DNA from: Clostridium sp. KNHs214
GTDB taxonomy: Bacteria; Bacillota; Clostridia; Clostridiales; Clostridiaceae
Direction: 5' to 3'
Assembly (NCBI RefSeq): GCF_000744935.1
Contig: NZ_JQMW01000004.1
Location: 86,869-110,868, forward strand
DNA: 24,000 bases
Numbering within the stretch: the first letter of the stretch is position 1; the number at the start of each line of letters is the position of its first letter. The position numbers were made by a program, and so were the translations under genes. The notes under the pieces are model-generated. The model worked only from the letters and a program-made list of their open reading frames with translations. It had not been told where the DNA came from and made no database searches. Positions 1,032 through 18,142 of the stretch are shown piece after piece.

Positions 1032-1169
1032 TTATGGTGTCACTACGGGTTCACTAGGTACCGCAGTAAACCATCCACTAATAATTGTTGCGTCCACCTC
1101 AACGCCATCCTCATCAGCAATAAATCTATATTGACCATCAGCTTCCCTTAGGTAAAACTTAGAAAACAT
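1032..1169 (-). pseudogene. Orphan C-terminal gene fragment reading out of the degenerate MITE copy
   Basis: 45-codon frame MFSKFYLREADGQYRFIADEDGVEVDATIISGWFTAVPSEPVVTP*. Its ATG lies inside the repeat. The body is locally GC-richer and looks like real coding sequence, but has no recognisable family and no upstream part. Confidence 0.3.
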
Positions 1170-1200
1170 ACGTTTCCAGTTTATGTCATGACCCTGGGGT
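1160..1200 (+). mobile_element. MITE copy 1: degenerate, left half only
   Basis: TA GAAAACATACGTTTCCAGTTTATGTCATGACCCTGGGGT matches the family consensus through the central palindrome, then diverges. Hairpin 2 and the right end are missing. Confidence 0.6.
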
Positions 1201-1239
1201 CATAGCCATGTTGTATTTACAAAATTATTATCTAAAATA

Positions 1240-1953
1240 TTATTCAATATAATCTATAACTTTTGCTGGACAAGAAAGAATTGTTTGCTGAAGCCTCTCT
1301 CTGTCTATATCTACATCATAAGATTTAATATATGCCTTTTTACCTTGCATACCAAAAATCTCGGGATAATTTCTGCTGCATATTGTACATCCCATACAAG
1401 CTTCCCTGTTTAACGAAAGTCCCCTTGCTTTTTCTTCTTTTTGTGCTAGATCTTCATCTTTTATAATCTTTGAAGCAATCCACGAAAATACTACTATAGC
1501 AATTACAGTTAATACCCAACGAATTGCCATAAACTTTATACCCAAAAACTTTACTTCGTTTAATAGCATTGGAACCTTTATTACTGCCCAGGAACTTAAG
1601 ATTATAACTAGATTTCGTATAGATGCCCCTTTTTTGTGAAGCATTACGCACATAGGAAATGCTGCATATATGGGTCCCGCAGATATGCTACCTAAAACAA
1701 ACGACAATATGATACCTTTAACCTTGGATTCTTTTCCTAAGTATTTTGAAATTTTTTCTTTTGCAATCCATGTATCCAAAAGCGCAGTAAGAATAAATAT
1801 CACTGGCATTATCATAAGCATTTCTTTTATATAATAGGCACTGTTTTTAATTGATGTAACACCCATAGATGGTTTAGTTACAAACATTATAATATAGGCA
1901 GCTATAACCATTACCAAAAAAGTATTATCTTTTGCTTTCTTTAAGATTTTCAT
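1240..1953 (-). CDS. Permease-family membrane protein (second half of a split permease) with a C-terminal ferredoxin-like Cys cluster
   Basis: Multi-TM sequence with LGSISAGPIYAAFPMCVMLHKKGA. The tail ...CMGCTICSRNYPEIF...LSCPAKVI looks like a small Fe-S ferredoxin domain. Overlaps the upstream permease gene by 4 nt. Confidence 0.8.
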   Translation of the reverse strand: MKILKKAKDNTFLVMVIAAYIIMFVTKPSMGVTSIKNSAYYIKEMLMIMPVIFILTALLDTWIAKEKISKYLGKESKVKGIILSFVLGSISAGPIYAAFPMCVMLHKKGASIRNLVIILSSWAVIKVPMLLNEVKFLGIKFMAIRWVLTVIAIVVFSWIASKIIKDEDLAQKEEKARGLSLNREACMGCTICSRNYPEIFGMQGKKAYIKSYDVDIDRERLQQTILSCPAKVIDYIE

Positions 1954-2432
1954 ACAATCACCCCCATTACCATAGCAATCATTATGGCAAATAAAAAACT
2001 TAATCCATTTCTCGTGGCAGTAAATTTAAGCCCAAATTCACGCTTTTCAAGTGGAAATGTTGCGATTCCTACCATAGTAAGTGTAGTTAAAAATGCCACA
2101 GAAGGAACTATACTAACCCCGGCATCAACCAATGTTCCAACAAGCGGAAAAGCAATAAAGGCAGGAATCAGAGTAACTGTTCCAAATACCGCCGAACCCA
2201 CCGTTGCTATGAGCAATGATTGACCTCCTACAAATTTGGCAATATTTTCTGGCGGTAATATTGTTAGAATTAAGCCAATTAAAAAAATAATTGATAAGAT
2301 GCTTCCCAGCATACCCTTGCCCATACCAAATGCCATTTTAAGTGCTTTCAATGTCTTAGATTTATCCTTTTTTATAGAAATCAAAAGGAATATGATTGTT
2401 CCTATCCACATTGCTGCTGTAAAAATATCCAT
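1950..2432 (-). CDS. Permease-family membrane protein (first half of the split permease)
   Basis: Hydrophobic multi-TM ORF. Start moved to ATG at 2432 (MDIFTAAMW...) because GGAGGA lies about 5 nt upstream. The track start (2462) has no RBS. Confidence 0.8.
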   Translation of the reverse strand: MDIFTAAMWIGTIIFLLISIKKDKSKTLKALKMAFGMGKGMLGSILSIIFLIGLILTILPPENIAKFVGGQSLLIATVGSAVFGTVTLIPAFIAFPLVGTLVDAGVSIVPSVAFLTTLTMVGIATFPLEKREFGLKFTATRNGLSFLFAIMIAMVMGVIV

Positions 2433-2490
2433 ACAAATCCTCCATTCTTTTTGTAATAACATAATTATAAATTACTTTATTATGTTCAAA

Positions 2491-2519
2491 TAGACACCGA
2501 TGTTTCTTTTTGATATAAT
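2491..2519 (+). promoter_or_regulatory. Sigma-A-type promoter for the Crp/Fnr gene
   Basis: -35 TAGACA (2491-2496), 17-nt spacer, extended -10 TGATATAAT (2511-2519). Confidence 0.55.
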
Positions 2520-2545
2520 ATTTAAAAATGGAGGACTTAATTAAT

Positions 2546-3196
2546 ATGAATATTGACGTTTTACGAAACATTTCATTATTTTCAACTGTAAGGGAACCTG
2601 ATTTAGAAAGACTAATAGCAAGTAATCATATTTATCAAAAACACTATATGAAAGGCGTAACCGTTCATAATGCAAATGAAACTTGCCAAACATTAGATAT
2701 TGTATTATCAGGAAGTTTAGTTGCATACTCTTTATCAACCAACGGTTCATCGACTACGATGTTTGAATTTAGTAAGGGAAGTATGCTCGGAACAAATTTA
2801 TTATTTGATGAAAGCCACGATTACCCTCTTAATATCTATTGTCTTACAGATTGTCAAATTATCCACATTGACATAAATGCTGTATTAGAATTCTTGCACG
2901 ACTACAATTTTACATTGCATTATATAAGGTCACTCTCACATAATTCGCAAGGAATAAATCAGAAGATAGCAATGTTTACACAACGAACTCTTAGAGAAAA
3001 TATTATGAATTATCTTAAACAGCAAACCATCATACAGAAATCTTCAGTAATTCTGCTTCCAATGAGTAAAAGGCAACTCGCAGATTATTTCGGTGTGCAA
3101 AGACCTTCTCTGTTTAGAGAACTTAAAAAATTAAAAGAAGAAGGTATTATTGAAATTAATAACCGTACAATCGCAATAAAAAAATATAAATATTAA
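2546..3196 (+). CDS. Crp/Fnr-family transcriptional regulator
   Basis: N-terminal cNMP-binding-like beta-roll region plus a C-terminal HTH (SKRQLADYFGVQRPSLFRELKKLKEEGII). Start set at ATG 2546: GGAGG at 2530-2534 is 11 nt upstream, and the track ATG at 2528 overlaps that RBS. Confidence 0.85.
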   Translation: MNIDVLRNISLFSTVREPDLERLIASNHIYQKHYMKGVTVHNANETCQTLDIVLSGSLVAYSLSTNGSSTTMFEFSKGSMLGTNLLFDESHDYPLNIYCLTDCQIIHIDINAVLEFLHDYNFTLHYIRSLSHNSQGINQKIAMFTQRTLRENIMNYLKQQTIIQKSSVILLPMSKRQLADYFGVQRPSLFRELKKLKEEGIIEINNRTIAIKKYKY

Positions 3197-3226
3197 ACAA
3201 CTTTATACATAATTAATATATTGACT

Positions 3227-3912
3227 TTACACATTAAATAAAAAAAGCACATATCTTAGTATAAAATCAAAAACATCAAGTTCTTCTTCTATTTTCTGTC
3301 CATCTTCATGCCTTTCATAAACAAAAGTTACCTTTTCACCATCATATCTTTTTATTCTTGATTCAGCTATTACTGGCCTTGCAGTATATCTTCCAACATA
3401 TCTTCCTGCTTCCTTTGCTGTTTTTATTTTTCCTTTTCCATATACATAAAATCCATTTTTTAATTTTTTATACAGTTCATTTTTTAATTTTTTAAACTTC
3501 TTTCTGTCACTCTCAAGGTTATTTCCTATCTCATCTAACAATATTTTCTGCCATCTTTTTCTTAATGCTGTATAGTTTATATGCTTGATATTTTTCCAGG
3601 CTGTAATTTCACCTGCCCCACCTTCGGTAACAATCAAATGCACATGGGGATTCCACTTTAAATCTCTACCAAAAGTATGAATAACTGATATTATTCCTGG
3701 AGTAAAACATTCTTTTTTATTTAAATCTTTAAACCAACTCTCTTAATTTCTCCACAACTCTCACAGTTAAATTCAATAAACCCTTTGTCTAGCGATCCAC
3801 AGTTAATCATTTTGTAAACTTCTCTATCTATGTTAGCTCTAATTTTGCCCTTATTGATTTCACGGAATTTTTCCCAATTATCAACAAATATTTGTTTTAT
3901 TACTCCACGCAT
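3227..3912 (-). pseudogene. IS91-family (Y2 HUH rolling-circle) transposase, decayed
   Basis: 3721-3912 encodes the N-terminal zinc-binding domain (...MINCGSLDKGFIEFNCESCGEIKRV). After an internal deletion, 3227-3700 encodes ...ISVIHTFGRDLKWNPHVHLIVTEGG...YVGRYTARPVIAESRI..., the catalytic-domain core. The C-terminus is missing. Confidence 0.8.
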
Positions 3913-3938
3913 TTATATCAATCCTATTCTAATTTTAG

Positions 3939-3972
3939 AAATAAAAAAGAACCTACCCCAAATAGTAAGTTC
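3939..3972 (-). terminator. Rho-independent terminator
   Basis: Minus-strand GAACUUAC-UAUUUGGG-GUAGGUUC (8 bp, one U.G pair) followed by UUUUUUAUUU. Confidence 0.55.
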
Positions 3973-3996
3973 CTTAAATTATTTCATAATCATTAT

Positions 3997-4087
3997 TAGC
4001 ACACATAAACTTCCAGTTTATGTCACGACCCCTAGGGTACTGCCAGAAAAAGGTTGTAGCAGAGCGAAAAACTTTTTCTGGGTTCTA
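3997..4087 (+). mobile_element. MITE copy 2 (full length, with flanking TA..TA)
   Basis: TA|GCACACATAAACTTCCAGTTTATGTCACGACCCCTAGGGTACTGCCAGAAAAAGGTTGTAGCAGAGCGAAAAACTTTTTCTGGGTTC|TA. Confidence 0.8.
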
Positions 4088-4249
4088 ATTATTCTTTGAA
4101 ATATTATAGGTCATCAGCCGAATACACTTAGCCTTCTTAAAATCTTCTACCACTTCTTTATAATTAACAAAGTCTCTACCTACAACAATTTCCCCGCCTT
4201 AATACGGTATATTCATTTTCATAAAATAACATTATCCTTCTTTTAAAAA

Positions 4250-4795
4250 CTATTCTTGTTTCATATTAAGAATCATTCCATCTTGAATTTCAAACTTTGT
4301 TTTAAAGTACGTTCTATTTTGACAATATCTCAAAATGATTTCACGCACATAATTGCGAGTGCAATAACTTTCTTCTACAATCTTATTTCCATTGTTATCT
4401 TCTTTTTCACGTGTAAAAAGTTTCATTTCTTCCCATGCATCTTTAATAGAAGTTACAAGCTCTTCGCTTAATTCAAGGTGTGAAAGAATTGTAGCATTAA
4501 GTTCCTGAGCCTTAATTTCTTTAATTTTTTCAAACTCACTAAGTTGTTTAAGTTCTGCTTCAATTGCTTTTGTATATGTATTCATATTTTCTTCTCCTAA
4601 TAATAAGTAGTCAGGAGTTACATCTAAAGTTTTTGCTAATTCAAGTAAATACACTGCTACCGGCTCATTATTCCCCTGTTCGTAATTTCTGATAGTTTGA
4701 ACAGAAATTTTTGTTATTTTAGCAAGTTCTTCTTGAGTATAGCATCTTTCTTTGCGAATTCTTTTTAAGCGCGCTGCAAAGACTTCTTTTTCCAT
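4250..4795 (-). CDS. XRE-family HTH protein with an uncharacterised ~110-aa C-terminal domain
   Basis: FAARLKRIRKERCYTQEELAKITKISVQTIRNYEQG is a canonical XRE HTH. Start placed at ATG 4795 (MEKEVFAARL), which follows GGAGGTGCAGGAAG. The track's TTG at 4831 is less likely. Confidence 0.75.
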   Translation of the reverse strand: MEKEVFAARLKRIRKERCYTQEELAKITKISVQTIRNYEQGNNEPVAVYLLELAKTLDVTPDYLLLGEENMNTYTKAIEAELKQLSEFEKIKEIKAQELNATILSHLELSEELVTSIKDAWEEMKLFTREKEDNNGNKIVEESYCTRNYVREIILRYCQNRTYFKTKFEIQDGMILNMKQE

Positions 4796-4879
4796 AACTT
4801 CCTGCACCTCCAGTATTGCATATTGCAACACAAAATTGACTACCCAAGTATTAGTAGTAACGAAAAAATCGACAAGTAT

Positions 4880-5062
4880 TTATCTTCCTTTTATGTATTT
4901 TCCGCTTTTAATTCTCTGATCATCCGGCTTCTCCGCATCGTCAGGAATGGCCCAATATGAGCCAACTTTCATCGCTCCTGGAATACGATCCTCCGAACAT
5001 AATACCTGGATCCTTCTAACGGAGATGCCCCACTTTTCAGATGTCTGTTTTATTGATAGCAA
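4880..5062 (-). CDS. Small MerR/excisionase-type HTH DNA-binding protein, native start split off by MITE copy 3
   Basis: LSIKQTSEKWGISVRRIQVLCSEDRIPGAMKVGSYWAIPDDAEKPDDQRIKSGKY matches small HTH proteins common in Firmicutes mobile DNA. The track start is a TTG inside the MITE (5062-5060). The original ATG AAA G lies at 5154-5148, on the other side of the MITE. Confidence 0.7.
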   Translation of the reverse strand: MLSIKQTSEKWGISVRRIQVLCSEDRIPGAMKVGSYWAIPDDAEKPDDQRIKSGKYIKGR

Positions 5063-5147
5063 ACATAAACTTCCAGTTTATGTCACGACCCCTGGGGTTG
5101 TTCCAGAAAAAGGCTGAAGTGAAACGGAAGACTTTTTCTGGTTTCTA
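5057..5147 (+). mobile_element. MITE copy 3 (full length, TA..TA)
   Basis: TA|GCAAACATAAACTTCCAGTTTATGTCACGACCCCTGGGGTTGTTCCAGAAAAAGGCTGAAGTGAAACGGAAGACTTTTTCTGGTTTC|TA. Deleting it plus one TA restores ATG AAA GTA TCA ATA AAA CAG... Confidence 0.85.
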
Positions 5148-5177
5148 CTTTCATTTATAAAATTTATGTTTCATTAA

Positions 5178-6107: not shown

Positions 6108-6242
6108 AGCTTTCCCCCCATATAGGGACGGTTATCAAATTTTTATAGCTTCAATTTTGAGAACCGCCCCCTACCCTCATAATTTTCTTGAACTATACAG
6201 TAGCATATGTGATATTTCCACTAATCTCTTCGTTATTTAAAA

Positions 6243-6818: not shown

Positions 6819-6942
6819 GTAACTATTCAGTTATCCTAAATAATTACTATTTTTAACAAGCTTGCTTATATAATTATATCATGCTATATTACATTAATGT
6901 ATTAATTTAATTAAATATTATAAATATTTCCTATAGATTTAT

Positions 6943-6991
6943 AAAATAAAAAAACCTTACTTTCAAATTTTTATGTATCTAACAGTAAGGT
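6943..6991 (-). terminator. Possible terminator (large loop)
   Basis: Minus-strand ACCUUACU-N22-AGUAAGGU followed by UUUUUUUAUUUU. The 22-nt loop weakens the call. Confidence 0.35.
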
Positions 6992-7005
6992 GTTGGTATT
7001 AAATT

Positions 7006-7044
7006 TAGCAAACATGAACTTCCAGTTTATGTCACGACCCCTGG
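7006..7044 (+). mobile_element. MITE copy 4, left part (interrupted by the IS)
   Basis: TA|GCAAACATGAACTTCCAGTTTATGTCACGACCCCTGG, then the IS inverted repeat begins at 7045. Confidence 0.8.
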
Positions 7045-8657
7045 CAGGTTGTGCGAAAATCCATAATTTATGGTATAATTTAATATATAAGTATTAAATT
7101 TCTATTAAGGGGTTGTTGCAATGAATTATATTTATGGTGATGATAGAAAACAAACAAAAATTGAAATAATGGAAGACTATGTTGATAACGATAGTGAAGT
7201 AAGAATTATTGATAAAATAATTGATGTTATGGATATAGAAAGTATGGGTTTCAAAGTTGGAAATAACGATGAAGTGGGACGACCTAAATTCAATCCAAAA
7301 GATTTATTGAAATTATACGTTTATGGATATTTTTACGGAATAAGATCATCACGTAAATTAGCAAAGCAATGCCTTATTAATAGGGAAGTTATTTGGTTAA
7401 TTAAAGGTATCAAACCTAAGTATAGAGTTATTGCAGATTTTAGAAAAGAAAATGTTGAAGCTCTTGAAAATATTTTTAAAAAATTTTTTAATTACTGTAT
7501 TGAGCTGGGCTTATATGGTAAAGAACTAATTGTTATAGATGGTACTAAAGTAGAGGCTTCCGCATCTAAGAGAAAAAATTACAGCCTAAATAAGCTATCT
7601 AAAATGAAGGAAATAACCCAAAATAAAATTGAAGAATATATGCATGCAATAGAAATTAATGATAATTTAGATGAGAATAAAAATAAAGATTTTGATAAAG
7701 AAGCCATAGAGTCTGCTATAAAAACATTAGAAGAAAAATTGGAATACTACAAACAATTAGATACTCAAATAATATTAAACGATGAAACTGAGATTAATTT
7801 TACAGATCCTGATGCTAAAACAGTAAAATTTGGAGCTAATCAAGGTACTGATTTGGGATATAATGTTCAAGTAGCAGTAGATGCTAAAAATAAACTTATA
7901 GCTGCTTATGATGTTATTAATAATTCAGCAGATCAAGGTCAGTTGTTTAATATGAGTGAAAAAGCTAAAGAAGCTCTTGATGTAGATTCTATAGAAGTTC
8001 TTGCAGATAAGTGATACTTTCATACAGAAGATTTTATTAAATGCGCTGAAGGAAATATTGTAGCTTATGTGTCTAAACCAACGTATTCTAATGGCATAGG
8101 AAATCCAACATATTATACTGATAAATTCAAATATTTAAAAGAAGAAGATGCATATATTTGTCCTGACGGACAAACTTTACATTGTATTACCAAAAAAATT
8201 AATGCTAAAAAGAAAAGATATTGTAATTATGATGCATGTAGTAAATGCAAAAACAAATCTAAATGCACAAATTCATCTAAAGGAAGAACAATAACAAGAG
8301 GCGAAAATGAAAATATTACAGAAGCGGTTAACGAAAGAGTTAAGGAGAATAAATCAAAATGTATGCTTCGCCAAACAATTGTTGAACATCCTTTTGGAAC
8401 ATTAAAAAGGACAATGGGTTTTTACTACTTACTTTTGAGAGGTTTCAAAAAAGTGAGGGGTGAGATTAGTCTTGCCATTTTTACCTATAATTTAAAAAGA
8501 GTAATAAATATTCTAGGAGTTGAAAGGCTCCTAGGAGCCCTTCTTGCTAATATTTATATACATTTTATGAGAAAGAACAAAAAGATTACTATAGTCCCTT
8601 AAAAAAGGAAATAAAGTTTCCAAGTAATCTTTTTATAGTTAATTTACGCACAACCTG
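7045..8657 (+). mobile_element. IS1182-family insertion sequence (1613 bp)
   Basis: Terminal inverted repeats CAGGTTGTGCGAAAAT (7045-7060) and, reverse-complemented, CAGGTTGTGCGTAAAT (8657-8642), 15/16 identical. 4-bp direct repeat CTGG at 7041-7044 and 8658-8661. Confidence 0.85.
7121..8602 (+). pseudogene. IS1182-family DDE transposase with an in-frame TGA
   Basis: N-terminal ...GRPKFNPKDLLKLYVYGYFYGIRSSRKLAKQC...IADFRKEN... is typical of IS1182/IS5-like transposases. Track ORFs 7121-8014 and 8069-8602 share one frame. The TGA at 8012-8014 sits where relatives have Gly in the conserved ADKGY motif (here LADK*YF). Confidence 0.8.
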
Positions 8658-8711
8658 CTGGGTACTACCAAAAAAAGTTGTAGCGGAGCGGAAAACTTCT
8701 TTTGGTTGCTA
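8658..8711 (+). mobile_element. MITE copy 4, right part
   Basis: CTGGGTACTACCAAAAAAAGTTGTAGCGGAGCGGAAAACTTCTTTTGGTTGC|TA. Joining it to 7006-7044 after removing one CTGG gives a full-length copy. Confidence 0.8.
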
Positions 8712-8725
8712 CCGCCAATCCAACA

Positions 8726-8780: not shown

Positions 8781-8823
8781 TTAAATGTAAAACATTTTGC
8801 TTCAAACCATACCATTGTTTCCG

Positions 8824-11298
8824 TTATTTCAAGCAACTATTCTTTTGACTATACTCTGTTTCGATAAATAAAGTTAATAATTCTCTTTGTTCTGGATTTA
8901 AAGTCGCATTATCACGTATCCACATATGTAATGCTTTTCCTATTGCATATGATAATTCTTTCTGTTGAACCTCTCCAATATTGCTTCTTGATACATTAGG
9001 AACAAATTCTGAATTCGTAATATTTACAATAGCCTCTTTTAAAGAAATTCCATCCACGAGATTCGGAATTTTTAATTTTAATCCTGAAAGCAATACATCT
9101 TTTAAATAGCATCGATCTGTATAAATCCAATTGTATTTGCCAATAACCCTACAATCCTTATTATATGGTAATACTATTCGGCTTCCATTGTTTATTACAT
9201 CCTGAACAATAGTAGAAATCTTTACTGGAGTATTTTCACCATGCCCAAACTGATCTCGAAAACCACCTAATGTATATCCTCCAACAATTTTATCACTTGA
9301 CATATCTACCCAAAGGTCGCCATAATCTATTTCTTCTTTCTTTCCCCAAACATTAATCGAATTATAATTTCCAATTTTATTAAGAGCTTCATCATAATCT
9401 TCTAGTACTTCATATGCCTTAAGGAAATCATATTCATCACAATCAGAAATAATCGGAATATTTAATAATCGAATTTTAGCATCTTCAACACAATCTTTAA
9501 TTAATAAGCACTCTTCATCATCCAAAGAGTACTTTTCATTATTATAATAATAACTTTCACATCCATTAATATCCCTTAATTGACCGGCAAAATTAATTTG
9601 CTTATAATTACAATCAATATAAGCCTCTACTCCATTCAAGTACTCATTCAAACATATATTTTGAGTAAAAGTATTTTCTACTCTTTTTAATTTGCACTCA
9701 AGTTCAGTAGCTTCCCCATTCTCCACCATTGAAAGCTTAATTGGAATCCCTGAATAAAGAAAATTGTTTTCAATAAATGATACTATATGCTCTATCTTAT
9801 TATCAAAAACACTTAGACATTGATCATAATCCAATATAATTTCTGTTCCTTGTGGCCTATGTGCATCCTCATACGTCAAACAAATATATTCACTATTTCT
9901 TTCAAATGAAATTCTATTCATTTTATAATCTTCATAATAAACAGTTTTTACCTCAACTTTATCAGATAACATAAAACAAGCTAAAAACCCTATTCCATAG
10001 TGCCCAATCGGAGAATATTTTCTTCCCTGCAGTAAATATTCATCAGATACATAATAAGATACGCCTACATTTAAAAAATATTTTTTTAAGATATTTATAG
10101 ACATGCCACTTCCATTATCCATAATAGTTACTTGTTTTCTATCCTTATCTAGCGTTATAGAAATAAATGGCTGATATTTTTGATATCGAAAATCCTCCAT
10201 TCGCCTCGATGTTTCTTCCATTGTTTTACATGCATCAATTGAATTCTGAATCAGCTCCCTAAGCCCAAATTTTTTATCTCCATAAATATGCTCACCCATC
10301 AATAAATTTGTTACTGCATTATAATCCAGTGATAATCTTAAATCCGAAAAACTAAATCCATTTGTCTGTATTTTATTAATCACATTTGTCTTTAGCACCA
10401 ACAAATACTTTTCACTGGCGTATTTTTCACATAAACTCACTGCATTTTTCAATTCTCCATTAATAGAATCAAAATATTTTAATAATTTTCTATGAACCGT
10501 GGGATTCTGACTAGAACCTTGAAAAATAAGTTCCTTTAATCCAGTGCGTTCATTTAAAAAAACTTTATCATAATTTTCTATAACAAAATGCTGTTTCCAT
10601 TCAAGATCACTATATTCTGTTGGCGCTAAATATTTGTATAAATACAATGGCGCTCGTTGTTCATCAATGTCCAAATAATCTGCAATTCTCAACAATACTG
10701 CAATGTACTGTGAATTCAAAGCATATCTACCTTTTGTTGATTCATAGGATAGATTCTTCTCTATCCATTCAAAATCTTCATTATGCGACATACATATCAA
10801 ACTAATTTCTATTCTGAAAGATATAATTGTTGATTCTGGAATCAAGAACAATTTCTCATCCATATTTTTTTCTATATATTCTTTAGCACGTCTCCCATGT
10901 ATTGGTCTAATACATTCCTGTAAGGCAATCTTTTCTTCTCCAAATTTTTCTAATACTTTGCTATACTTTCTCTCTCCTAAAATTGAATTATCATTTTTAA
11001 TGTCTCTTATTTCATCATTATTTGTTACCATTCCAATATCATGTAATAAAGCGCTATATATTAATGAAATCACCTCTAATTCACTTAATTGATCTATATC
11101 TGATATTAGATTATACATATATTCCATTACATCTATAGAATGTCTAATCCCATGAACTGTATAATTCGTAAAAACATTATTAATTAATGGCAATACATCA
11201 TTTGCATATTTAATAACTTCGTTGAGTTGTGTTAAAAATTTACTATCTTTTTTTCTTAACCACTCATATAGATGTGTCTCTTGTACTTTTTCTATCAA
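8824..11298 (-). CDS. 824-aa protein: N-terminal HD phosphohydrolase domain + Hsp90-like GHKL ATPase domain + ~350-aa uncharacterised C-terminal region
   Basis: HD motifs: H49/H53 (VHGIRHS), H86-D87 (ALLHDIGM), PIHGR, RIADYLD. Bergerat-fold motifs: E348..N352..D355 (LRELIQNSIDA), D394-G398 (MDNGSGM), G435-G437 (GHYGIGFLACF). An RBS-like GGGGGAGG lies upstream of the ATG. Confidence 0.85.
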   Translation of the reverse strand: MIEKVQETHLYEWLRKKDSKFLTQLNEVIKYANDVLPLINNVFTNYTVHGIRHSIDVMEYMYNLISDIDQLSELEVISLIYSALLHDIGMVTNNDEIRDIKNDNSILGERKYSKVLEKFGEEKIALQECIRPIHGRRAKEYIEKNMDEKLFLIPESTIISFRIEISLICMSHNEDFEWIEKNLSYESTKGRYALNSQYIAVLLRIADYLDIDEQRAPLYLYKYLAPTEYSDLEWKQHFVIENYDKVFLNERTGLKELIFQGSSQNPTVHRKLLKYFDSINGELKNAVSLCEKYASEKYLLVLKTNVINKIQTNGFSFSDLRLSLDYNAVTNLLMGEHIYGDKKFGLRELIQNSIDACKTMEETSRRMEDFRYQKYQPFISITLDKDRKQVTIMDNGSGMSINILKKYFLNVGVSYYVSDEYLLQGRKYSPIGHYGIGFLACFMLSDKVEVKTVYYEDYKMNRISFERNSEYICLTYEDAHRPQGTEIILDYDQCLSVFDNKIEHIVSFIENNFLYSGIPIKLSMVENGEATELECKLKRVENTFTQNICLNEYLNGVEAYIDCNYKQINFAGQLRDINGCESYYYNNEKYSLDDEECLLIKDCVEDAKIRLLNIPIISDCDEYDFLKAYEVLEDYDEALNKIGNYNSINVWGKKEEIDYGDLWVDMSSDKIVGGYTLGGFRDQFGHGENTPVKISTIVQDVINNGSRIVLPYNKDCRVIGKYNWIYTDRCYLKDVLLSGLKLKIPNLVDGISLKEAIVNITNSEFVPNVSRSNIGEVQQKELSYAIGKALHMWIRDNATLNPEQRELLTLFIETEYSQKNSCLK

Positions 11299-11316
11299 AA
11301 AACCTCCCCCTTTATT

Positions 11317-11826
11317 CTATATAGCAAACTTATTTTTTAATTCTTCATCAGTTTCTATTTTTTCACCAACCCACGGTTGCAAAAAATATTTGATATGTGG
11401 ATTCACCATGTCTACCATATGATTTTGTCCAGCTGGCGTAATTACAAAATAATGTTGCAATTCAATAATCAAACCATTATTCATCGGTAACTCTAACGTA
11501 TGTGTGCTCTCCCTCAAAAAAGCCTTTATAATCATAACTTTCTCCTGATTCATATTCTTTAAATATTTAATTTGTCCTTCAGAAACTTTCTTTGCAACTT
11601 TTTTATCATGGAAATGGTGATACACTTTTGACATCAAAAGTACAACTAATATTGCTAATGAAACAACAAATACTACCCCGATTACAAAACCATACCGATT
11701 ACGAAACTCCAACATATACAACTTTTTTATAATACGATTAGGCAAAAAAAGCAAAAAACCACTTGCTATTGCTAATGCCCCTAATATATTTGGTGGTAAT
11801 TTCAAAAACTCTATAAAATCCTTCAT
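11317..11826 (-). CDS. 169-aa two-TM membrane protein, SieB-like (superinfection-exclusion B family resemblance)
   Basis: Two N-terminal hydrophobic helices (ILGALAIASGFLLFLP and YGFVIGVVFVVSLAILVVLLM) followed by a soluble tail. The layout and the LKLP...LLFLP...F...YG..IG pattern recall SieB-family proteins from memory. The stop is 18 nt upstream of the HD-GHKL start. Confidence 0.75.
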   Translation of the reverse strand: MKDFIEFLKLPPNILGALAIASGFLLFLPNRIIKKLYMLEFRNRYGFVIGVVFVVSLAILVVLLMSKVYHHFHDKKVAKKVSEGQIKYLKNMNQEKVMIIKAFLRESTHTLELPMNNGLIIELQHYFVITPAGQNHMVDMVNPHIKYFLQPWVGEKIETDEELKNKFAI

Positions 11827-11910
11827 CTTATCACACTTCCTTCTAAACCTTCAATAAATGAATTCCGTATTTTTTCATCATTTATAAGTTAAAACTTATT
11901 TCTCATCATA

Positions 11911-12099
11911 TCAAAACTTAGTTTTTGTATCCCCACACTCTATATCGACCACTACCGAAACATTGATATAATCCTTAATCTCCTTATTCCGCATTTTCTC
12001 ACCCCAATCAGTAAACACAATATACTTGTGAAAGTGCCTGAAATTAAGGATTTCTATATATCTTTCTGCACTCCCCACATAAACCCTGACGAATAGCAA
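11911..12099 (-). CDS. Hypothetical 62-codon ORF reading out of MITE copy 5 (doubtful)
   Basis: The frame opens at the TTG inside the MITE. The sequence is paralogous to 19000-19175, where the same frame is broken by a stop. It may therefore be non-coding. Confidence 0.3.
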   Translation of the reverse strand: MLFVRVYVGSAERYIEILNFRHFHKYIVFTDWGEKMRNKEIKDYINVSVVVDIECGDTKTKF

Positions 12100-12184
12100 A
12101 CATAAACTTCCAGTTTATGTAACAATCCCCGGGGCACTTCCAGAAAAAGGTTATAACGGAGCGAAAAACTTTTTCTGGTTGCTA
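12094..12184 (+). mobile_element. MITE copy 5 (full length, TA..TA)
   Basis: TA|GCAAACATAAACTTCCAGTTTATGTAACAATCCCCGGGGCACTTCCAGAAAAAGGTTATAACGGAGCGAAAAACTTTTTCTGGTTGC|TA. Confidence 0.85.
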
Positions 12185-12251
12185 TCTTCTCCCTTTATTT
12201 ATTTTTTAGCCCTATCGCATTAAATAATATAAAATTCTATTTAACCACCTA

Positions 12252-15200
12252 TTATTTAATGCATCTGATACGTTTTTTAAAATATGTTGGATATTCGTCC
12301 AGCAATTGTTTTACCTTATCAGTCTTTGATTTTATGTATTTTATTATTTCATCTTCTTTTATCAATTTATTTCCTAGTTTATTTGATAGTACTGTTGCTA
12401 GATATCGGTCATTAAAAATTTTTTCACAAATTGATATACTAGTTTGTGAATCAACACCATATTTAATTTTTTTCTGAAGCATCATTAAGCGACTGAGATT
12501 CGTGCTTTCTGAATTTAAAAAATCCATAATATTACCAATTAGAAAATTAAGTTTATACGAAATGTAGTGGCAACATATTTTTTCGACATCCATCATAGTC
12601 TTATCATATGCTTGGCTCATTTCTACGCATGACATACCATGAATCCAATCTTGACACAAATTTGCTGTAATTAAATCCGCTTCATATATTTCATTATATA
12701 ATCCAACTGTCATCTCTATTAATTGCTCTTCTGAGTATGTTTCGTTATTAACATCATATTCTTCAATCCAGCTCTTTACATTTTTTGCAATATCCCTTGG
12801 AAGTATTGCCGCTGAATATTGTTTAATATCTTTTCTATTATTATAAATATCCTCTACTATCGTATAAATAATCATAGATAGGCGTTTTTCCTCTTCTTCT
12901 GTTGCCAAATACATTGCCAAGGTGTTTTGAAATGCTCTAGCTGCCTCTTCCTGCATCTCATTGTAATCATCTAGTATATTATTTTTACAAAGCACATAAC
13001 TTATTTCACTCTCTATGATACCTATTATGCTTTTATAATTTTGAACTTTACTTGTAATATTTCGCCGGTATTGATCTTGGTTTACATCAGGATACCGTTC
13101 TTTAATATCCATCATCAATTCTTCTACAAGAGTATATTCCCATTTTTCACAAAAATTATCACATATATATTTCGTAACAAATTCACCATATACCGTAAGT
13201 TGATAATTTCCTTTAAAGTCTTGGACTACACTTAAAATTGCACTTCCACACGCCTCAGCGTTTTGTGAATCAAATAAATCTGTTGCCTCTTTCCATTCAT
13301 AAAAGCCTCTACCATTCCTTTTATTATCAAAAAGTTTCGAATCTGTAACTATAATACTTCCTTCCGTATAAACACCTGACCTTGCTGTTCTTCCCATCAA
13401 ATTCTGAAAGCTTCTAGTTGTCATCATTTTCTGAGCAGACTTCATACTTGTCATTATTAAATACTTAATAGGAATATTAACTCCCTGAGCCAAAGTTGAT
13501 GTACACGCTATAATTTTTAATTTTTCTTTTCGAAATGCGTATTCAATAGCTATACGTAATCCATTTGGCAAATAAGAATAATGCGGTAATATGCCTATTT
13601 CACATGCTTTAGTATACACATAATCATCACCATAGTACGCTTGAATAAGGTTTTTCAATTTATCTAGTTCATCCATGTCTGCTGATTGTTTTATATTACT
13701 CAAATCATAACTTCTATCCTCTAGTTCAACAACCCGATCTAGTATTTTAGGAATAGATCTTCTTTGATTTAAATATACTGCTATACCACCGTTTTTACAT
13801 AATAAATTCGAATAATATATTGCAACATCTTGTGGTTTGCTCAACTCAGGAAATACTTTCTCTTTTCTTTCCCGTTTTTTCATGCTAAGTTTCGTTATAT
13901 TAATTGCTCTTGGTATATAAAAATCTTCTTCTGAAAAAGAATCTGAATAGTAATGAATTTCTTTTGTTTTTGATGTAAACCCAATTACTTTAGGAGTACT
14001 TCTAATATTTTTGTCATAAGCCAGTATTCCATCTTCTCCAAATGCCCAATGACATATCTTATCAGCATTTGAAAGAACTGCAGACATTAAAACCATTTGA
14101 TGAGTAATTTGTAGATTCGTTGTAATATCTGAAACTAATAATTCATACAATGCCCCTCTACTTTCATCATCAAACATATGACCTTCATCAAAAATATAAA
14201 GATTAATTTCATTTATATAATCTGGTTGATGATGAAATATATATTGCAATTTTTCTGGAGTACATACAAAGATTTTATGCCTTTTTTTATTTTCAAATAG
14301 ACTTTCAAAATCAAATTCTAATACATCCGAAAACTGATTAATTATAACATCTTTCAGAAATGCTCTATGCATATCATCTGTTATCTCGTTACAAAGAGCT
14401 CTTAACGGTGCAACAATTAAGGCAGTATCCCCTCTTTCGGCCAAGAACATTGATCTAATTATTAATTCTATACTTTTTGTTTTTCCAACCCCTGTAGGCA
14501 ATTGAACAACTGCATTCTTCCCTCTTAATATTCCACTTTCCCCAATAAGTTTTTGAGATGGCCATATCAACTTTATTGCATTTTTCTGATTAAAATAAAC
14601 TTTCCATTTTTCTTCTTCTACAGCTGAATATTTCGGAAGAAGTTTTCTCGCAGAATATCCTAGCATAATTCTTAAAACTGCACACAAAACTTCTGAGAAG
14701 AACAAATCCAATGGGCTTCCTTTAATATCCATTTGTTTCTTATACTCATCTGCCTCTTGAAGAACTTGCTCTTCTGTTCCTGTTTGTAAATAATTTTTTA
14801 CTAAATTTAAAAGAGTACTCTCAAAAGATTGTTTTCTTCGACCTGTAAAAAGTAAGTTGAATACTTCAACCAAAATCCCCCTTGTATCATTCTGAATTTG
14901 TTTATCATTTACAGCTTCTGATAGTACTTTTGCACTTCCAAAATCGTCTAAAAAGAAATATGCAGCCGCACCAGAAATCAAGAAATCTTGATCATGTTCT
15001 TCCTGTTCCCTAGCTTTGACAGCTGCATCATAATATTCCGAACAATAATGTAATCTTTCTTTTATTTTGTATTGAGTATCCTTGTCATTATTTATAATTG
15101 CTTCTGCATATTCTGACAATGTTAACACTGTTGGAAAAACCAAATCTCTATAATTTAGTGGAAATTTAGGATGACTATCTTCAGGTATATTATATTCCAA

Positions 15201-15257
15201 AAGTTTCACTTTTGCTTTTTGGTATTTTAACATATATTCAGATCTTCTAGAACTCAC
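12252..15257 (-). CDS. hamB: Hachiman HamB, SF2 DEAD/DEAH-type helicase (1001 aa)
   Basis: Walker A QLPTGVGKTK (G256-T260), motif II IFDEGH (357-360), SAV, QGVNIP, and motif VI QNLMGRTARSG. The GTG start overlaps the hamA stop (GTGA). Confidence 0.8.
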   Translation of the reverse strand: MSSRRSEYMLKYQKAKVKLLEYNIPEDSHPKFPLNYRDLVFPTVLTLSEYAEAIINNDKDTQYKIKERLHYCSEYYDAAVKAREQEEHDQDFLISGAAAYFFLDDFGSAKVLSEAVNDKQIQNDTRGILVEVFNLLFTGRRKQSFESTLLNLVKNYLQTGTEEQVLQEADEYKKQMDIKGSPLDLFFSEVLCAVLRIMLGYSARKLLPKYSAVEEEKWKVYFNQKNAIKLIWPSQKLIGESGILRGKNAVVQLPTGVGKTKSIELIIRSMFLAERGDTALIVAPLRALCNEITDDMHRAFLKDVIINQFSDVLEFDFESLFENKKRHKIFVCTPEKLQYIFHHQPDYINEINLYIFDEGHMFDDESRGALYELLVSDITTNLQITHQMVLMSAVLSNADKICHWAFGEDGILAYDKNIRSTPKVIGFTSKTKEIHYYSDSFSEEDFYIPRAINITKLSMKKRERKEKVFPELSKPQDVAIYYSNLLCKNGGIAVYLNQRRSIPKILDRVVELEDRSYDLSNIKQSADMDELDKLKNLIQAYYGDDYVYTKACEIGILPHYSYLPNGLRIAIEYAFRKEKLKIIACTSTLAQGVNIPIKYLIMTSMKSAQKMMTTRSFQNLMGRTARSGVYTEGSIIVTDSKLFDNKRNGRGFYEWKEATDLFDSQNAEACGSAILSVVQDFKGNYQLTVYGEFVTKYICDNFCEKWEYTLVEELMMDIKERYPDVNQDQYRRNITSKVQNYKSIIGIIESEISYVLCKNNILDDYNEMQEEAARAFQNTLAMYLATEEEEKRLSMIIYTIVEDIYNNRKDIKQYSAAILPRDIAKNVKSWIEEYDVNNETYSEEQLIEMTVGLYNEIYEADLITANLCQDWIHGMSCVEMSQAYDKTMMDVEKICCHYISYKLNFLIGNIMDFLNSESTNLSRLMMLQKKIKYGVDSQTSISICEKIFNDRYLATVLSNKLGNKLIKEDEIIKYIKSKTDKVKQLLDEYPTYFKKRIRCIK

Positions 15258-16090
15258 TTTTTACACCTCTCGTAAACCTCATGTGCTAAATCCATTAATT
15301 TTCTACCATGTACATAGAATACTGCTGTTCCTGTTTTTATTTGCAGTTTATCCCCTTCAATATTAGGAATAACTTTCATTGTTTTCTCGTTAACCTTTTT
15401 TTCAGGAATATTATCCAAACTAGATATTCCTGCTCCAATATATCTAAGCTTATAATTATACCCCTCCTTTGTTTTCTTCTGAAAACGCAAAACATCTTCT
15501 GCCACATTAGTCTTACCCATCATTTTTAATTTCTTTCGCATATAATTAAGCGTTATTGAAACTCGATACTCATCTTTTACAGAATCTAAAACTGCATCTT
15601 CAATTGGATTTGTACTCTTTGATGTCAATTGAGCCTTTACCTCCACTGCCATCAACTTATCTTTTTCACTTGGGCTTTTATCTAAATTATGGAATTTAAA
15701 ACCTATAATGTCCGTTCCATGCTCTGACAAAGTTTTTCCTGACATATTATACTGTCTACATCTTGGAACTTCATAATTATAGACAAACTCCAGTAAATCA
15801 GAAAATAATATCTCACTAATAGTATTTGACCTTGCTGTTCCACCCATTGGATCCGTTTTTTGTGGAATAATATATTTTCTCAAATAATCCTCTACTGGCA
15901 GATTTAACTCTTCACTATCTTCTTCTAGTTCCTCATCTGAAATATAATGTCTTCTTAAATGAAGTGCCCAATCATCAAGTATTGATTCTTCCTCATCATA
16001 ATCTATTTCATAACAGAATAAAGATTTCCCATTATCAAAAATAACATCTTTTTCTTTTGTAAGCCATTTTAGATACTCAGGTTGCATCAT
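15254..16090 (-). CDS. hamA: Hachiman HamA (DUF1837, PD-(D/E)xK-like)
   Basis: 278 aa, directly upstream of and translationally coupled to a large SF2 helicase. Core GGTARSNTISEILFSDLLEF...HGTDIIGF (D127)...LMAVEVKAQ (E150, K152) fits DUF1837. Confidence 0.75.
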   Translation of the reverse strand: MMQPEYLKWLTKEKDVIFDNGKSLFCYEIDYDEEESILDDWALHLRRHYISDEELEEDSEELNLPVEDYLRKYIIPQKTDPMGGTARSNTISEILFSDLLEFVYNYEVPRCRQYNMSGKTLSEHGTDIIGFKFHNLDKSPSEKDKLMAVEVKAQLTSKSTNPIEDAVLDSVKDEYRVSITLNYMRKKLKMMGKTNVAEDVLRFQKKTKEGYNYKLRYIGAGISSLDNIPEKKVNEKTMKVIPNIEGDKLQIKTGTAVFYVHGRKLMDLAHEVYERCKK

Positions 16091-16313
16091 AATTTATCCT
16101 TAGCAGCAAACCGTATATTATGCATATAAATATTACATAATAAGCATTTATTACTTTATTTACAATAAATACCGTCTACTACATTCTCCTCCCCTTATTG
16201 ATTTTTATTTATGCTGACATTCTTGTGCAAAAATACGCTTGACACAGAATGCACAAAGCACTTACATCCTTTCTGTAAGGCAAAATATTAATCTTCTGCT
16301 TATTCTATCTGAA

Positions 16314-17201
16314 TTAATTACTTACTTTTCTCTTTGAATTAGCAAGATATGTATTCCGAGAAAATGGTCCTTTATACGCCTCTTCATCTAAAAATCCAAG
16401 AATAATTTTTACCTGTTCCTTATCATTTGGAATAACAACCTTTTCATCTTTTATATTCACAATTATTCCAGATTCATAAGCCAAATCCTTAATTTCATTT
16501 GCAGAATAATTTTCAAGTACCTTAGAATCGTTAATCATAGCAATTTTTCTTCTATTCCATGTATTTGCCATTCCTTTAAAATTATCTACATTTTCTAAAC
16601 TCAGCTTGTCTGATCCTGCAAAACATTCAACCTCTTGATCTGTTGCCGAACGATAATAGTCACCCAAGTCAAACACCTGCCTTGCAAAGAAAAAAGAAGA
16701 AAACTGTAATTCGCCTTCTGTATAAAAGCAATCAATATTATCAGATATACTAATTCCAAAATTTTTTTCTCTATGAAATGTGTCGTCAGTAAAAAACAGG
16801 TTAAACCATGATGTAGATATATATTGCTCTTTACGAAAACGTTGAAATGCCACTTTAAATTTTTCTGTATCATCTGCCTCTGTTCTTTTTCCAAGAAACA
16901 CAGCCTTTATCTCAAGGAAATTCCCATCTTTCTTTTCATAAACCGTTACTCCTAATGGATCTCTTATTGCATCCTTAATTTTGTCTGCCAGTTGAAAATT
17001 TTCAACAGCCAAGAATTCATCCCTGTGAGGTTTGTAACTTCCATCAAATTTAATCCTTGTTTTGTCAGTAATCAAATCACCTAATGCAGTTTCAAATGCA
17101 CTGCAAATATCTTTTTGCGTATCCGCATCAACATCAAGTCGATATATTTCATTTGCATGGGCGCCAGCAGCAATAATCATTACAGAACAATCCTCAAACA
17201 T
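16314..17201 (-). CDS. kwaB: Kiwa KwaB-like protein (DUF4868)
   Basis: 295-aa soluble protein 4 nt downstream of a 4-TM partner. Size, gene order and the C-terminal ...ILGFLDEEAYKGPFSRNTYLANSKRK pattern fit my memory of DUF4868/KwaB. Confidence 0.65.
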   Translation of the reverse strand: MFEDCSVMIIAAGAHANEIYRLDVDADTQKDICSAFETALGDLITDKTRIKFDGSYKPHRDEFLAVENFQLADKIKDAIRDPLGVTVYEKKDGNFLEIKAVFLGKRTEADDTEKFKVAFQRFRKEQYISTSWFNLFFTDDTFHREKNFGISISDNIDCFYTEGELQFSSFFFARQVFDLGDYYRSATDQEVECFAGSDKLSLENVDNFKGMANTWNRRKIAMINDSKVLENYSANEIKDLAYESGIIVNIKDEKVVIPNDKEQVKIILGFLDEEAYKGPFSRNTYLANSKRKVSN

Positions 17202-17205
17202 ATTA

Positions 17206-17730
17206 TCATCTCCCTGTATCTAAAAGTAAAAAATCAAAAATACGGTTTACAGTCCCTAGATCTTTTGACCTTCTCAATTTTCTCTTACTTATTACTGTAT
17301 ATCCAGACATACCATGTTCACCACTTACTTGGTAAAAGTGATACTGTTTTACCCATAAAAGTGGGTTTGGAATTGATGTATTAACATAGGGTGCTACAAC
17401 AGCAAGTATTACACCTAATATTGCACATATTGTCACATCAAAGTCTTTAATTGCCATACTTGCAAATGGTAATGCATAACTTAACACATACAAAACTACC
17501 CACCCATCATATGGAGAAATATCATTTGTTCTTATTATTATTGGAGCGATGTGTGTTTTTCCATAAGAAAAAGAAACTGAAAACAACACAATGAGTACAA
17601 TTCCAACTGCAATACTAATAAGTGGAACTTTTAATGTTTCCTTTTGCAAATACCAAACCAAAGCAAAGATAAAACTAAGTGGTGCTACTGTAGAAACATT
17701 ATAAATAAATTTCTGTACAATATTTCCCAT
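17206..17730 (-). CDS. kwaA: Kiwa KwaA-like membrane protein
   Basis: 174 aa with four predicted TM helices and a basic cytoplasmic tail. RBS GAGGTGAG lies 5 nt upstream. Immediately precedes the KwaB-like gene. Confidence 0.6.
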   Translation of the reverse strand: MGNIVQKFIYNVSTVAPLSFIFALVWYLQKETLKVPLISIAVGIVLIVLFSVSFSYGKTHIAPIIIRTNDISPYDGWVVLYVLSYALPFASMAIKDFDVTICAILGVILAVVAPYVNTSIPNPLLWVKQYHFYQVSGEHGMSGYTVISKRKLRRSKDLGTVNRIFDFLLLDTGR

Positions 17731-17748
17731 AAAAACTCACCTCACTTT

Positions 17749-18057
17749 TCAAATAATGCTCGTTTTATTTCTTGTTTTTACCACATTCACCCACTTCTTC
17801 TCAAATGAATTAGAACCACCAACATCAAAATATTTTTCAAAGAATACTTTCAGTTTATCCATAACCCTCTATTTTTTCTCTGCCCTACCACCACTGCCAA
17901 ATCTAGAAACAGGTGACATAATCTTCTCAATATCTGTTCCGACTGTCTTAATCTCTCCATCTCGGAATGCATTCTCAATAAACTTTCTAGTGTCCGCTGG
18001 TTTTAGCTTTTCCTCTGTGATAATGGCTTGGAGTTCCTTTTCACGCTGATTTAGCAA
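17749..18057 (-). pseudogene. hsdR: C-terminal remnant of a type I restriction R subunit (HsdR, EcoR124-like C-terminus) with an in-frame TAG
   Basis: ...EEKLKPADTRKFIENAFRDGEIKTVGTDIEKIMSPVSRFGSGGRAEKK*RVMDKLKVFFEKYFDVGG... matches the conserved HsdR C-terminal tail. TAG at 17871-17869 falls where relatives have Gln. No helicase or nuclease part lies upstream. Confidence 0.7.
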
Positions 18058-18142
18058 ACATAAACTTCCAGTTCATGTAACGACCCTAGGGGTACTGCAA
18101 AAAAAAGGTTGCAGCAGAGCAAAAAACTTTTTTGGGTTTCTA
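18052..18142 (+). mobile_element. MITE copy 6 (full length, TA..TA)
   Basis: TA|GCAAACATAAACTTCCAGTTCATGTAACGACCCTAGGGGTACTGCAAAAAAAAGGTTGCAGCAGAGCAAAAAACTTTTTTGGGTTTC|TA. Confidence 0.85.

Follow-up and report, generated by a model that had tools for sequence, protein, structure and literature searches.

The 24,000-nt stretch of Clostridium sp. KNHs214 analysed here (contig NZ_JQMW01000004.1, positions 86,869 to 110,868 of the forward strand; hereafter the window) contains six copies of a short, non-coding, hairpin-rich element, all in the same orientation, in a region of accessory and defence genes. The element is a member of a new repeat family of a familiar bacterial kind, similar to MITEs (miniature transposable elements with inverted repeats) and repetitive extragenic palindromic (REP) sequences, and is not part of a gene-cassette system. 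On balance, we think it probable that the family is non-autonomous, is defined by structure and is copied in trans, in a REP/REPIN-like or MITE-like manner.

A 25-nt probe from the left end of the element matches the plus strand of the window five times with at most one mismatch (at 3999, 5059, 7008, 12096 and 18054; shuffled sequences give an expectation of 0), and repeat finding together with an nhmmer profile resolves four intact full copies, one full copy split by an insertion sequence (IS) and one half copy, all on the plus strand. The intact copies are 91-bp elements located at 3997-4087 (copy 2), 5057-5147 (copy 3, within the third codon of an HTH_17 gene), 12094-12184 (copy 5) and 18052-18142 (copy 6), each beginning and ending with TA. 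Copy 4 is divided into a left part at 7006-7044, comprising arm A and half of the central palindrome, and a right part at 8658-8711, of which the first four nucleotides (CTGG, 8658-8661) are the target duplication of the IS. Copy 1 (1160-1200) had been regarded as a degenerate left half, and it is indeed a half element, consisting of the arm A hairpin and the central palindrome (nhmmer match 1160-1207 to model positions 1-48, E = 1e-5); to this we add an adjoining plus-strand remnant, CATAGCCATG at 1201-1210, which resembles the inverted-repeat end of an IS4-like IS that targets the centre of the element elsewhere. The same junction, in which the central palindrome is followed by CATAGCC, recurs in at least 11 copies at other loci. 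Beyond the left end of the window, at a distance of ~1.68 kb, a Logan contig identical to the window carries a seventh copy; Logan contigs identical to the window break inside copies.

These results agree with a preliminary description of the window with respect to the number, positions and shared orientation of the copies, the TA at both ends of every full copy (five of five, all reading TA-GCAAAC...-TA) and the location of each of the six copies downstream of a minus-strand gene, with the stop of that open reading frame (ORF) 16-162 nt upstream of the element. The preliminary description also called the copies near-identical, which does not hold, as their pairwise identity is 78-87%.

The 91-bp unit has five components: TAGCAA as one terminal motif; hairpin A, ACATAAAC-TTCCA-GTTTATGT; a palindrome rich in GC, e.g., ACCCCTGGGGT; hairpin 2, CCAGAAAAAG-N19-CTTTTTCTGG; and TTGCTA as the other terminal motif. 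As a single strand, it is predicted to fold into a cloverleaf of three hairpins closed by pairing of TAGCAA with TTGCTA, with a predicted energy of -22 kcal/mol compared with -8.4 in shuffles (z = -6.7). The predicted folds of two shorter, 73-bp types of the family give z = -5.5 to -9.3. In its general layout, the family has at each end a perfect 8-10-bp hairpin preceded by TAGCAA or TAGAAA, with the GC-rich palindrome between. The ends had been described as imperfect inverted repeats, and TAGCAA...TTGCTA is inverted as stated; however, the sequence in common between the two ends of the 91-bp type is limited to 6-9 nt, and TAGCAA and the hairpin shape are all that they have in common.

Both hairpins and the drifting central palindrome are found in every copy, as was originally noted. 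Alignment of 12 copies of the 91-bp type, drawn from the window, from Haloimpatiens and Hathewaya and from two contigs of metagenomes, shows pairing in 92% of stem cells. The stem covariation reported earlier is real at position 4 of the hairpin 2 stem, which is G:C, U:A or A:U, but covariation inside the 91-bp type is confined to that position and is otherwise thin, and the stem base of copy 6 is partly broken. The suspicion that the hairpins are under constraint is upheld by the family as a whole: in an alignment of 64 distinct arms, 92.6% of stem cells are paired, compared with 80.5% in shuffles, while slid controls pair at 30-55%. Changes on both sides of the stem occur at four of eight arm positions, with 73 double-change cells against 27 expected and none of 500 shuffles as high, the compensatory changes representing only about three arm lineages. 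Because stem changes are compensated across arm types, the data show that each arm keeps its own dyad symmetry, and that more than complementarity between the two arms is preserved. A TA is present at the 5′ end of 91% of copies and at the 3′ end of 59% (at both ends in 45 of 79 family copies), and the 5′ TA therefore resembles a neutral target-site duplication less than it does part of a conserved TAGCAA motif. Scans for promoters and terminators gave no signal inside the elements, and Rfam yielded no match at the gathering threshold, only matches at chance level (E ~1).

Outside the window, the family extends to Haloimpatiens, Hathewaya and psychrophilic Clostridium. Scanning of one genome for each species, in which loci were tiles with exact pattern matches, and a scan of metagenomes together gave 36 genome tiles and 44 metagenome loci with ~100 further copies; the metagenome loci alone hold ~90 copies, mostly from one Clostridium population, on at least 30 contigs (loci are designated below by L numbers). 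The core of the element is present in Haloimpatiens lingqiaonensis (three tiles), Hathewaya massiliensis, Clostridium bowmanii, C. frigoris and C. algoriphilum, as well as in Clostridium sp. CF012 and several Clostridium metagenome-assembled genomes. Lone copies on contigs of ~400 kb occur alongside dense clusters, such as the nine copies within 7.4 kb of L081. Among 116 copies, 111 are extragenic and five lie inside ORFs of at least 100 aa, and in the commonest type the nearest-neighbour identity is 95%. The original view of the element as a non-autonomous repeat of the insertion type, rather than a cassette recombination site, is supported; the element is dispersed, with solitary copies on many contigs and no integrase nearby. 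No match to it was found in plasmid and phage collections (by BLAST) or in a scan of viral contigs, and searches aimed at it in open-access full texts gave nothing.

There are three main architectures, which have in common a 5′ module (TAGCAA, hairpin A and centre) and have unlike 3′ arms. In addition to the 91-bp type of the window, there is a 73-bp type in which an inverted ACAATAAC...GTTATTGT hairpin forms the 3′ arm, and a second 73-bp type with GTAAAAAC-TGGAA-GTTTTTAC-TTTCTA; both 73-bp types have the form of inverted doublets. Other arm types and hybrids include M2, T4R and a solo hairpin-2 mini-element. All of the arm types (A, B2, B3, H2, M2 and T4R) have TAGCAA or TAGAAA at their start and then a hairpin whose sequence varies. 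Because arm types are mixed across copies, the family is mosaic.

A second abundant repeat with a TAGCAA terminus, and with the same local orientation as its neighbours, was also observed (TAGCAAACAGAACTTG-N13-CAATTTCTGT-AACGGGGTC...), at L081 3855 and 10208, L025 726-3089, L014 5541-5903, L015/L016 (C. bowmanii) and L092 4642. It extends into a 98-bp element with three hairpins in some copies and into units of at least 170 nt in others, which points to a wider superfamily.

The orientation of copies is non-random across the family, as it had appeared to be in the window. More than one copy is present at 21 loci, and at 18 of these the copies have a single orientation; L081 carries nine copies, every one on the plus strand, with intervening genes on both strands. 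The genes neighbouring the 116 copies occur in all arrangements, with a modest excess reading into the 3′-arm side (54 compared with 26). The strand on which arm A comes first is the C-rich strand in 81 copies compared with 21, as judged from GC skew, a proxy for the replication strand that is confounded with gene strand on short loci; for loci of at least 5 kb, the agreement is 27 to 8 (p = 0.002). On the complete Haloimpatiens chromosome, copies are on the minus strand at 0.78 Mb (skew +0.15) and on the plus strand at 2.10-2.12 Mb (skew -0.21). Orientation hence tracks GC skew better than it does the direction of neighbouring genes, a suggestive result that is in keeping with the use of one strand of the element during replication.

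A trace of past mobility is seen at copy 3. On the minus strand, ATGAAAG (5148-5154), an orphaned start encoding Met-Lys-, precedes the element and TATCAATAAAACAGACATCTGAAAAGTGGGGC follows it (TATCAATAAAACAG... on the far side); the remainder of the HTH_17 gene (PF12728; 4880-5058, minus strand) now reads from a TTG in the element end, TTGCTA. Deletion of 5059-5147, i.e., the element and one TA, regenerates a gene start, as the preliminary description had claimed: ATG AAA GTA TCA ATA AAA CAG, encoding MKVSIKQTSEKWG (longer read, MKVSIKQTSEKWGISVRRIQ...). The closest HTH_17 homologues, 88-93% identical, start with M(K/G/E)YLSIKQTSEKWG, examples being MKYLSIKQ and MKYLSIKQTSEKWG, and the DNA homology (85%) between the HTH_17 gene and its homologue in L050 begins exactly at that TA (window position 5058). 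By our own estimate, an in-frame ATGAAA at the edge of copy 3 is unlikely by chance, at a few per thousand. Given the orphaned ATGAAAG, the starts of the homologues and the onset of homology at the TA, copy 3 therefore split the HTH_17 gene after its second codon, and the reconstruction shows an insertion precisely at a TA within a gene. Removal of the copy and one TA restores the frame, which fits duplication of a TA target, but the outcome is the same if the TA belongs to the element. A lookup of the reconstructed HTH protein found close homologues in unrelated serine-recombinase elements, with no empty site there.

Other copies are not so simply explained. The preliminary description took the segment at ~19000-19196 as a MITE-free paralogue of the copy 5 locus. 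It does not represent an empty site: homology to the truncated ORF or segment at 11911-12093 (minus strand) ends exactly at the element edge, with no resumption beyond it (the other flank scores 44, compared with a shuffle mean of 36 and maximum of 51), and the paralogue (~19000-19167) runs on upstream past the point where the copy 5 version ends. At copy 6, a 62-aa C-terminal fragment of HsdR, the R subunit of a type I restriction enzyme (17869-18051, minus strand; positions 187-245 of 260 in Pfam EcoR124_C), is cut exactly at the element edge. A Haloimpatiens copy at L036 2190 is located between the first 100 codons of a TIR gene, whose TIR_2 domain is cut at position 92 of 122, and the apparent tail of another ORF. 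Several copies abut truncated genes without their other halves, and the junctions are not simple insertions; they fit either deletion or recombination between copies, or element-adjacent deletions. The earlier idea that the repeats serve as substrates for homologous recombination is accordingly retained in part, in that truncated genes at the edges indicate rearrangement at copies, but the copies are too diverged to act as near-identical blocks. As a separate observation, a ~370-nt segment without a convincing ORF is 85% conserved between window positions 18776-19140 and Haloimpatiens L036 2611-2974; its partial paralogue is the one at 11911-12093 that abuts copy 5. A ParE/Phd module common to the window and two Clostridium species (84-87% identity) was considered as a possible repeat-bounded cassette and was rejected, since it has a repeat on one side only, and only in the other genomes.

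Three IS families show a preference for the central palindrome as their target. The insert that splits copy 4, identified as an IS in the preliminary description, is a 1613-bp member of the IS1182 family (7045-8657, plus strand) with the terminal inverted repeat CAGGTTGTGCG and the CTGG duplication. It contains Pfam domains DUF772 and DDE_Tnp_1_6, and its transposase is split into two ORFs (7121-8014 and 8069-8602), while that of a 98% identical IS in Haloimpatiens (L011 ~1951-3608) is intact, at 493 aa. The two insertions have the same palindrome position and orientation in non-orthologous copies, which suggests site-specific targeting of the palindrome; the near-identity of the two ISs also implies that the window stems from a close relative. 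An IS4-like IS (transposase 477-485 aa, DDE_Tnp_1; terminal inverted repeat CATAGCCATCAAC) borders the centre in at least 11 cases, and is found almost exclusively there, in either orientation and with target duplications of 10 to ~21 bp (L016 2160-4036, L093 7960-9838 and L094 489-2367, and also in L002, L008, L027 and L056). A second IS1182-like IS is likewise inserted in the central palindrome. There is a parallel in REP sequences, which attract IS1397 and IS621.

Comparison with known systems helps to place the family. In the REP, BIME and REPIN sequences of Proteobacteria, whose transposase is the Y1 HUH enzyme RAYT, a short motif likewise lies 5′ of a hairpin (GTAG there, TAGCAA here), several hairpin classes occur per genome, doublets are inverted with a spacer, and the repeats are mosaic, locally clustered, almost wholly extragenic and favoured targets of IS insertion. 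The features by which REP sequences are recognized are found here as a motif 5′ of a class-variable hairpin (six arm types) and as inverted, extragenic doublets in many copies. The differences are the TAGCAA motif itself, the GC-rich central palindrome, a uniform rather than alternating orientation in clusters, the correlation with GC skew, the one insertion precisely at a TA, the host in Clostridia, and the finding by phmmer of no repeat-flanked RAYT gene among the loci, which are tiles with exact pattern matches. MITEs that duplicate TA, such as the Correia elements of Neisseria and RUP of Streptococcus pneumoniae (RUP/IS630-Spn1), resemble the family in being ~70-110 bp long and non-coding, with inverted ends, TA at both ends, dispersed intergenic locations, an occasional insertion into a gene and stable hairpin folds. 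They are unlike it with respect to the parent IS, none being known or found here, the ends that are alike over only 6-9 nt in the 91-bp type, the modular arms with compensatory hairpin changes and the strong orientation bias.

The palindrome-associated elements (PATEs) derived from IS200/IS605 also have ends defined by hairpins, are non-coding and have an orientation bias relative to the replication strand (here with GC skew as the proxy). Such a bias is to be expected from single-strand transposition into the lagging-strand template, which is established for IS608 and ISDra2. In contrast to PATEs, the ends here are mutually inverted rather than co-oriented, there is no 4-5-nt target beyond TA, and the only nearby IS605 element (in L032) has unrelated hairpins. 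Finally, the attC arrays of integrons and CALINs are similar in having structured repeats of one orientation between accessory and defence genes beside a core gene, the repeats being imperfect palindromes that fold as single strands. In the present family, however, no IntI is near any array, copies may be solitary, genes are in mixed orientation, one copy lies inside a gene, and the element ends (TAGCAAAC ... GGTTGCTA or CTTTCTA) contain no R or L core boxes; the fold, moreover, is three hairpins or a cloverleaf, and not a single long imperfect hairpin with extrahelical bases. Integrons and CALINs are very rare in Firmicutes, according to IntegronFinder surveys (PMC9024848). In sum, the family is most like REP, BIME and REPIN sequences in its workings, Correia or RUP MITEs in size and TA flanks, and IS200/IS605 derivatives in strand bias. 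Because the enzyme link that defines each of these groups was tested and not found, membership in the REP, MITE or IS200/IS605 families is not established. To our knowledge, no REP- or MITE-like family has been described in this group of Clostridia, nor any REP-RAYT-type system in Clostridia.

The explanation that we favour, of copying in trans, can be outlined as follows. An enzyme encoded away from the copies would make new copies in trans, recognizing a short motif and a hairpin shape on the single-stranded DNA of one replication strand, and this recognition would follow HUH/RAYT-like logic rather than binding of terminal inverted repeats on double-stranded DNA. The copies in the window would have piled up in a dispensable island downstream of an rlmCD-type gene, where insertions would be tolerated even in genes, and deletion or recombination between same-orientation copies may have left the gene fragments at their edges and brought modules together. 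We favour RAYT-like logic because of the motif-plus-hairpin arms, the mixing of arms, the extragenic spread, the attraction of ISs and the skew-linked orientation, and we tentatively prefer single-strand hairpin recognition to an IS630-type process because of the strand bias and structure-defined ends. An extended version can be envisaged, in which a clostridial REPIN-like family copied from single-strand hairpin DNA of one replication strand uses its same-orientation copies to capture, delete and swap defence and accessory modules, forming in effect an integrase-less cassette array downstream of the rlmCD-type gene; we consider this version unlikely.

A number of observations weigh against copying in trans from single-stranded DNA. 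The TA-TA flanks, the inverted termini and the frame restoration at copy 3 are exactly the outcome of a DDE-type MITE that duplicates TA. The enzyme was sought with phmmer, using IS608 TnpA, the E. coli RAYT, IntI1, XerD and IS630-like seeds against the 1959 ORFs of all loci (~600 kb, ~120 copies); the search returned no RAYT, IS630-like enzyme or integrase, its only hits being one XerD-like gene, at a locus that is not clostridial, and an IS605 element that is unrelated. Nor did these ~600 kb contain an arm-flanked ORF of transposase length, except for the IS4-like insertions into elements, and an arm-flanked RAYT should probably have been caught by the pattern scans. The flanks of copies have no conserved 4-5-nt target of the IS200/IS605 type beyond the TA, and no empty site was found when joined flanks were compared by BLAST against all collected loci. 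A test for asymmetry between G.T and A.C pairs, aimed at the folded strand, gave a signal dominated by one polymorphic site. On short loci, GC skew is confounded with gene strand, 8 of 35 loci run counter to it, and the window copies, at 78-87% identity, may be old and inactive in the genome of Clostridium sp. KNHs214.

Several candidates for a partner were examined and set aside. The only recurrent transposase near copies is the IS4-like one, which might have been the parent if the element were its fused ends; however, it has its own terminal inverted repeats, duplicates 10-21 bp of the centre and is present in both orientations, as expected for targeted insertion. For an IS1182-like IS with a TAGCAAACA terminus, the similar sequences proved to be arm type M2 of the same superfamily, always single-ended, and not IS ends. 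The IS605-type tnpA/tnpB pair beside a half element in L032 has unrelated end hairpins (CCCAC...GTGGG), a recurrent DUF429 gene near copies has no flanking arms, and a degenerate IS91 transposase near copy 2 is not recurrent. The last is a remnant of an IS91-family (Y2 HUH) gene at 3227-3912 on the minus strand, ~85 nt downstream of copy 2, and consists of a Zn_Tnp_IS91 N-terminus (3721-3912), frame breaks and then a Y2_Tnp fragment (3227-3643).

The main competitor to copying in trans is that the element is a classical MITE of a TA-duplicating DDE transposon of the IS630/Tc1-mariner kind, whose transposase, located elsewhere or lost, binds the ends on double-stranded DNA and cuts and pastes the element into TA. 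This is a possibility to be taken seriously, albeit a doubtful one. It accounts for the TA at both ends of all full window copies and of 45 of 79 family copies, for the inverted termini TAGCAA...TTGCTA and for dispersed, extragenic, non-coding copies, and it explains the restored HTH_17 frame just as well as copying in trans does. It does not predict the uniform orientation of clusters or the tracking of GC skew, and sequence-specific binding of terminal repeats has no need of compensatory arm hairpins. Ends that are alike over only 6-9 nt in the 91-bp type and the unequal retention of TA (5′, 91%; 3′, 59%) are also awkward for it. The preliminary description, which correctly reported no autonomous partner in the window, had only the TA flanks as its basis for the IS630/Tc1-mariner assignment, and that assignment is not sustained: the search it proposed for a full-length IS with the GCAAAC... 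termini (TAGCAAACATAAAC...) uncovered no IS630-type or other IS with these ends in ~600 kb around ~120 copies.

Less probable again, indeed quite unlikely, is a structural element maintained mainly by the host, by analogy with roles proposed for REP/BIME (stabilising or insulating RNA as part of a 3′-untranslated region, or serving as a site for a protein or for DNA structure), that would now be immobile in this genome and would spread or rearrange only by recombination and horizontal transfer of its flanks, an idea that is compatible with the other explanations. The six window copies lie 16-162 nt past a gene stop on the sense side, the common strand is the one that would be co-transcribed, structure is kept despite divergence to 78-87% identity, and no partner enzyme was found. 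Across the family, though, neighbouring genes point in all directions and skew fits orientation better; the element contains no terminator or promoter signature and has no Rfam match, copy 3 in a coding sequence shows past mobility, and the 95% nearest-neighbour identity of the commonest type argues for fairly recent copying. Very improbable, finally, is that a gene-cassette or tandem-accretion system recombines at the repeats (as attC-like or att sites), with modules captured by a site-specific recombinase. The arrangement is reminiscent of one: repeats of one orientation lie between typical cassette cargo (toxin-antitoxin, GNATs and defence systems), flank homology at copy 5 goes exactly as far as the repeat, gene fragments border repeats, and dense arrays exist elsewhere (L081). 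We reject it because of the dispersal of copies, many of them solitary on large contigs, the finding of no tyrosine or serine recombinase associated with arrays, and the mismatch to attC core sites (RYYYAAC/GTTRRRY), which are absent from the ends. In addition, genes between repeats run both ways, copy 3 lies inside a gene, and the toxin-antitoxin module is common to other genomes without repeats on both sides.

The family has practical consequences. Small structured repeats break assemblies, and all Logan contigs of this strain terminate in a copy; for annotation, recognition of the family accounts for the unusual TTG starts and the gene fragments that border it. Such repeats attract ISs, disrupt or re-start genes and give recombination points in defence islands. 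If the strand bias does reflect single-strand mobilization, the family would offer a Gram-positive system for seeking the responsible enzyme and for testing the role of repeats in the assembly of defence islands.

As for genomic context, the window has a GC content of ~30%, and nearly all of its genes are on the minus strand. The modules between copies encode ParE/Phd, two ArsP-type permeases with a Crp regulator, HTH proteins, two GNATs, an HD-CE/HATPase protein with SieB, and the defence systems Hachiman (HamA/HamB) and Kiwa (KwaA/KwaB), both of which are complete (HamA 15254-16090, HamB 12252-15257; KwaA 17206-17730, KwaB 16314-17201). The protein beside the SieB-like protein, with HD-CE and HATPase_c_3 domains, matches no PADLOC system (defence stretches 8824-11826 and 12252-17730). 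At 19540-19586 on the minus strand, the final 47 nt of an rlmCD-type methyltransferase gene (tRNA_U5-meth_tr) are repeated, marking the inner boundary of an integrated element, and in a Logan contig from another sample (L045, 1-1489) the intact gene is joined directly to position 19586. It follows that positions 19587-24000 form the end of this separate element, which the L045 sample lacks, and that the repeat-rich island lies immediately downstream of the rlmCD-type core gene. The integrated element (19587-24000 and beyond) encodes a sigma70_r4/Zn-ribbon protein (19760-20269), a 553-aa protein (20393-22054) and PD-T4-1 (22140-23438).

Two further observations concern related loci. Related HTH genes are found in large-serine-recombinase elements beside the same methyltransferase gene (L051). 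In Haloimpatiens, the region adjacent to the element copies at L036 3129-7777 (2.115-2.120 Mb) contains a series of ORFs, with no element copies between them, that resemble antibiotic-modifying enzymes when inspected by eye, the candidates being an Arr-type ADP-ribosyltransferase, nucleotidyltransferases and a hexapeptide acetyltransferase.

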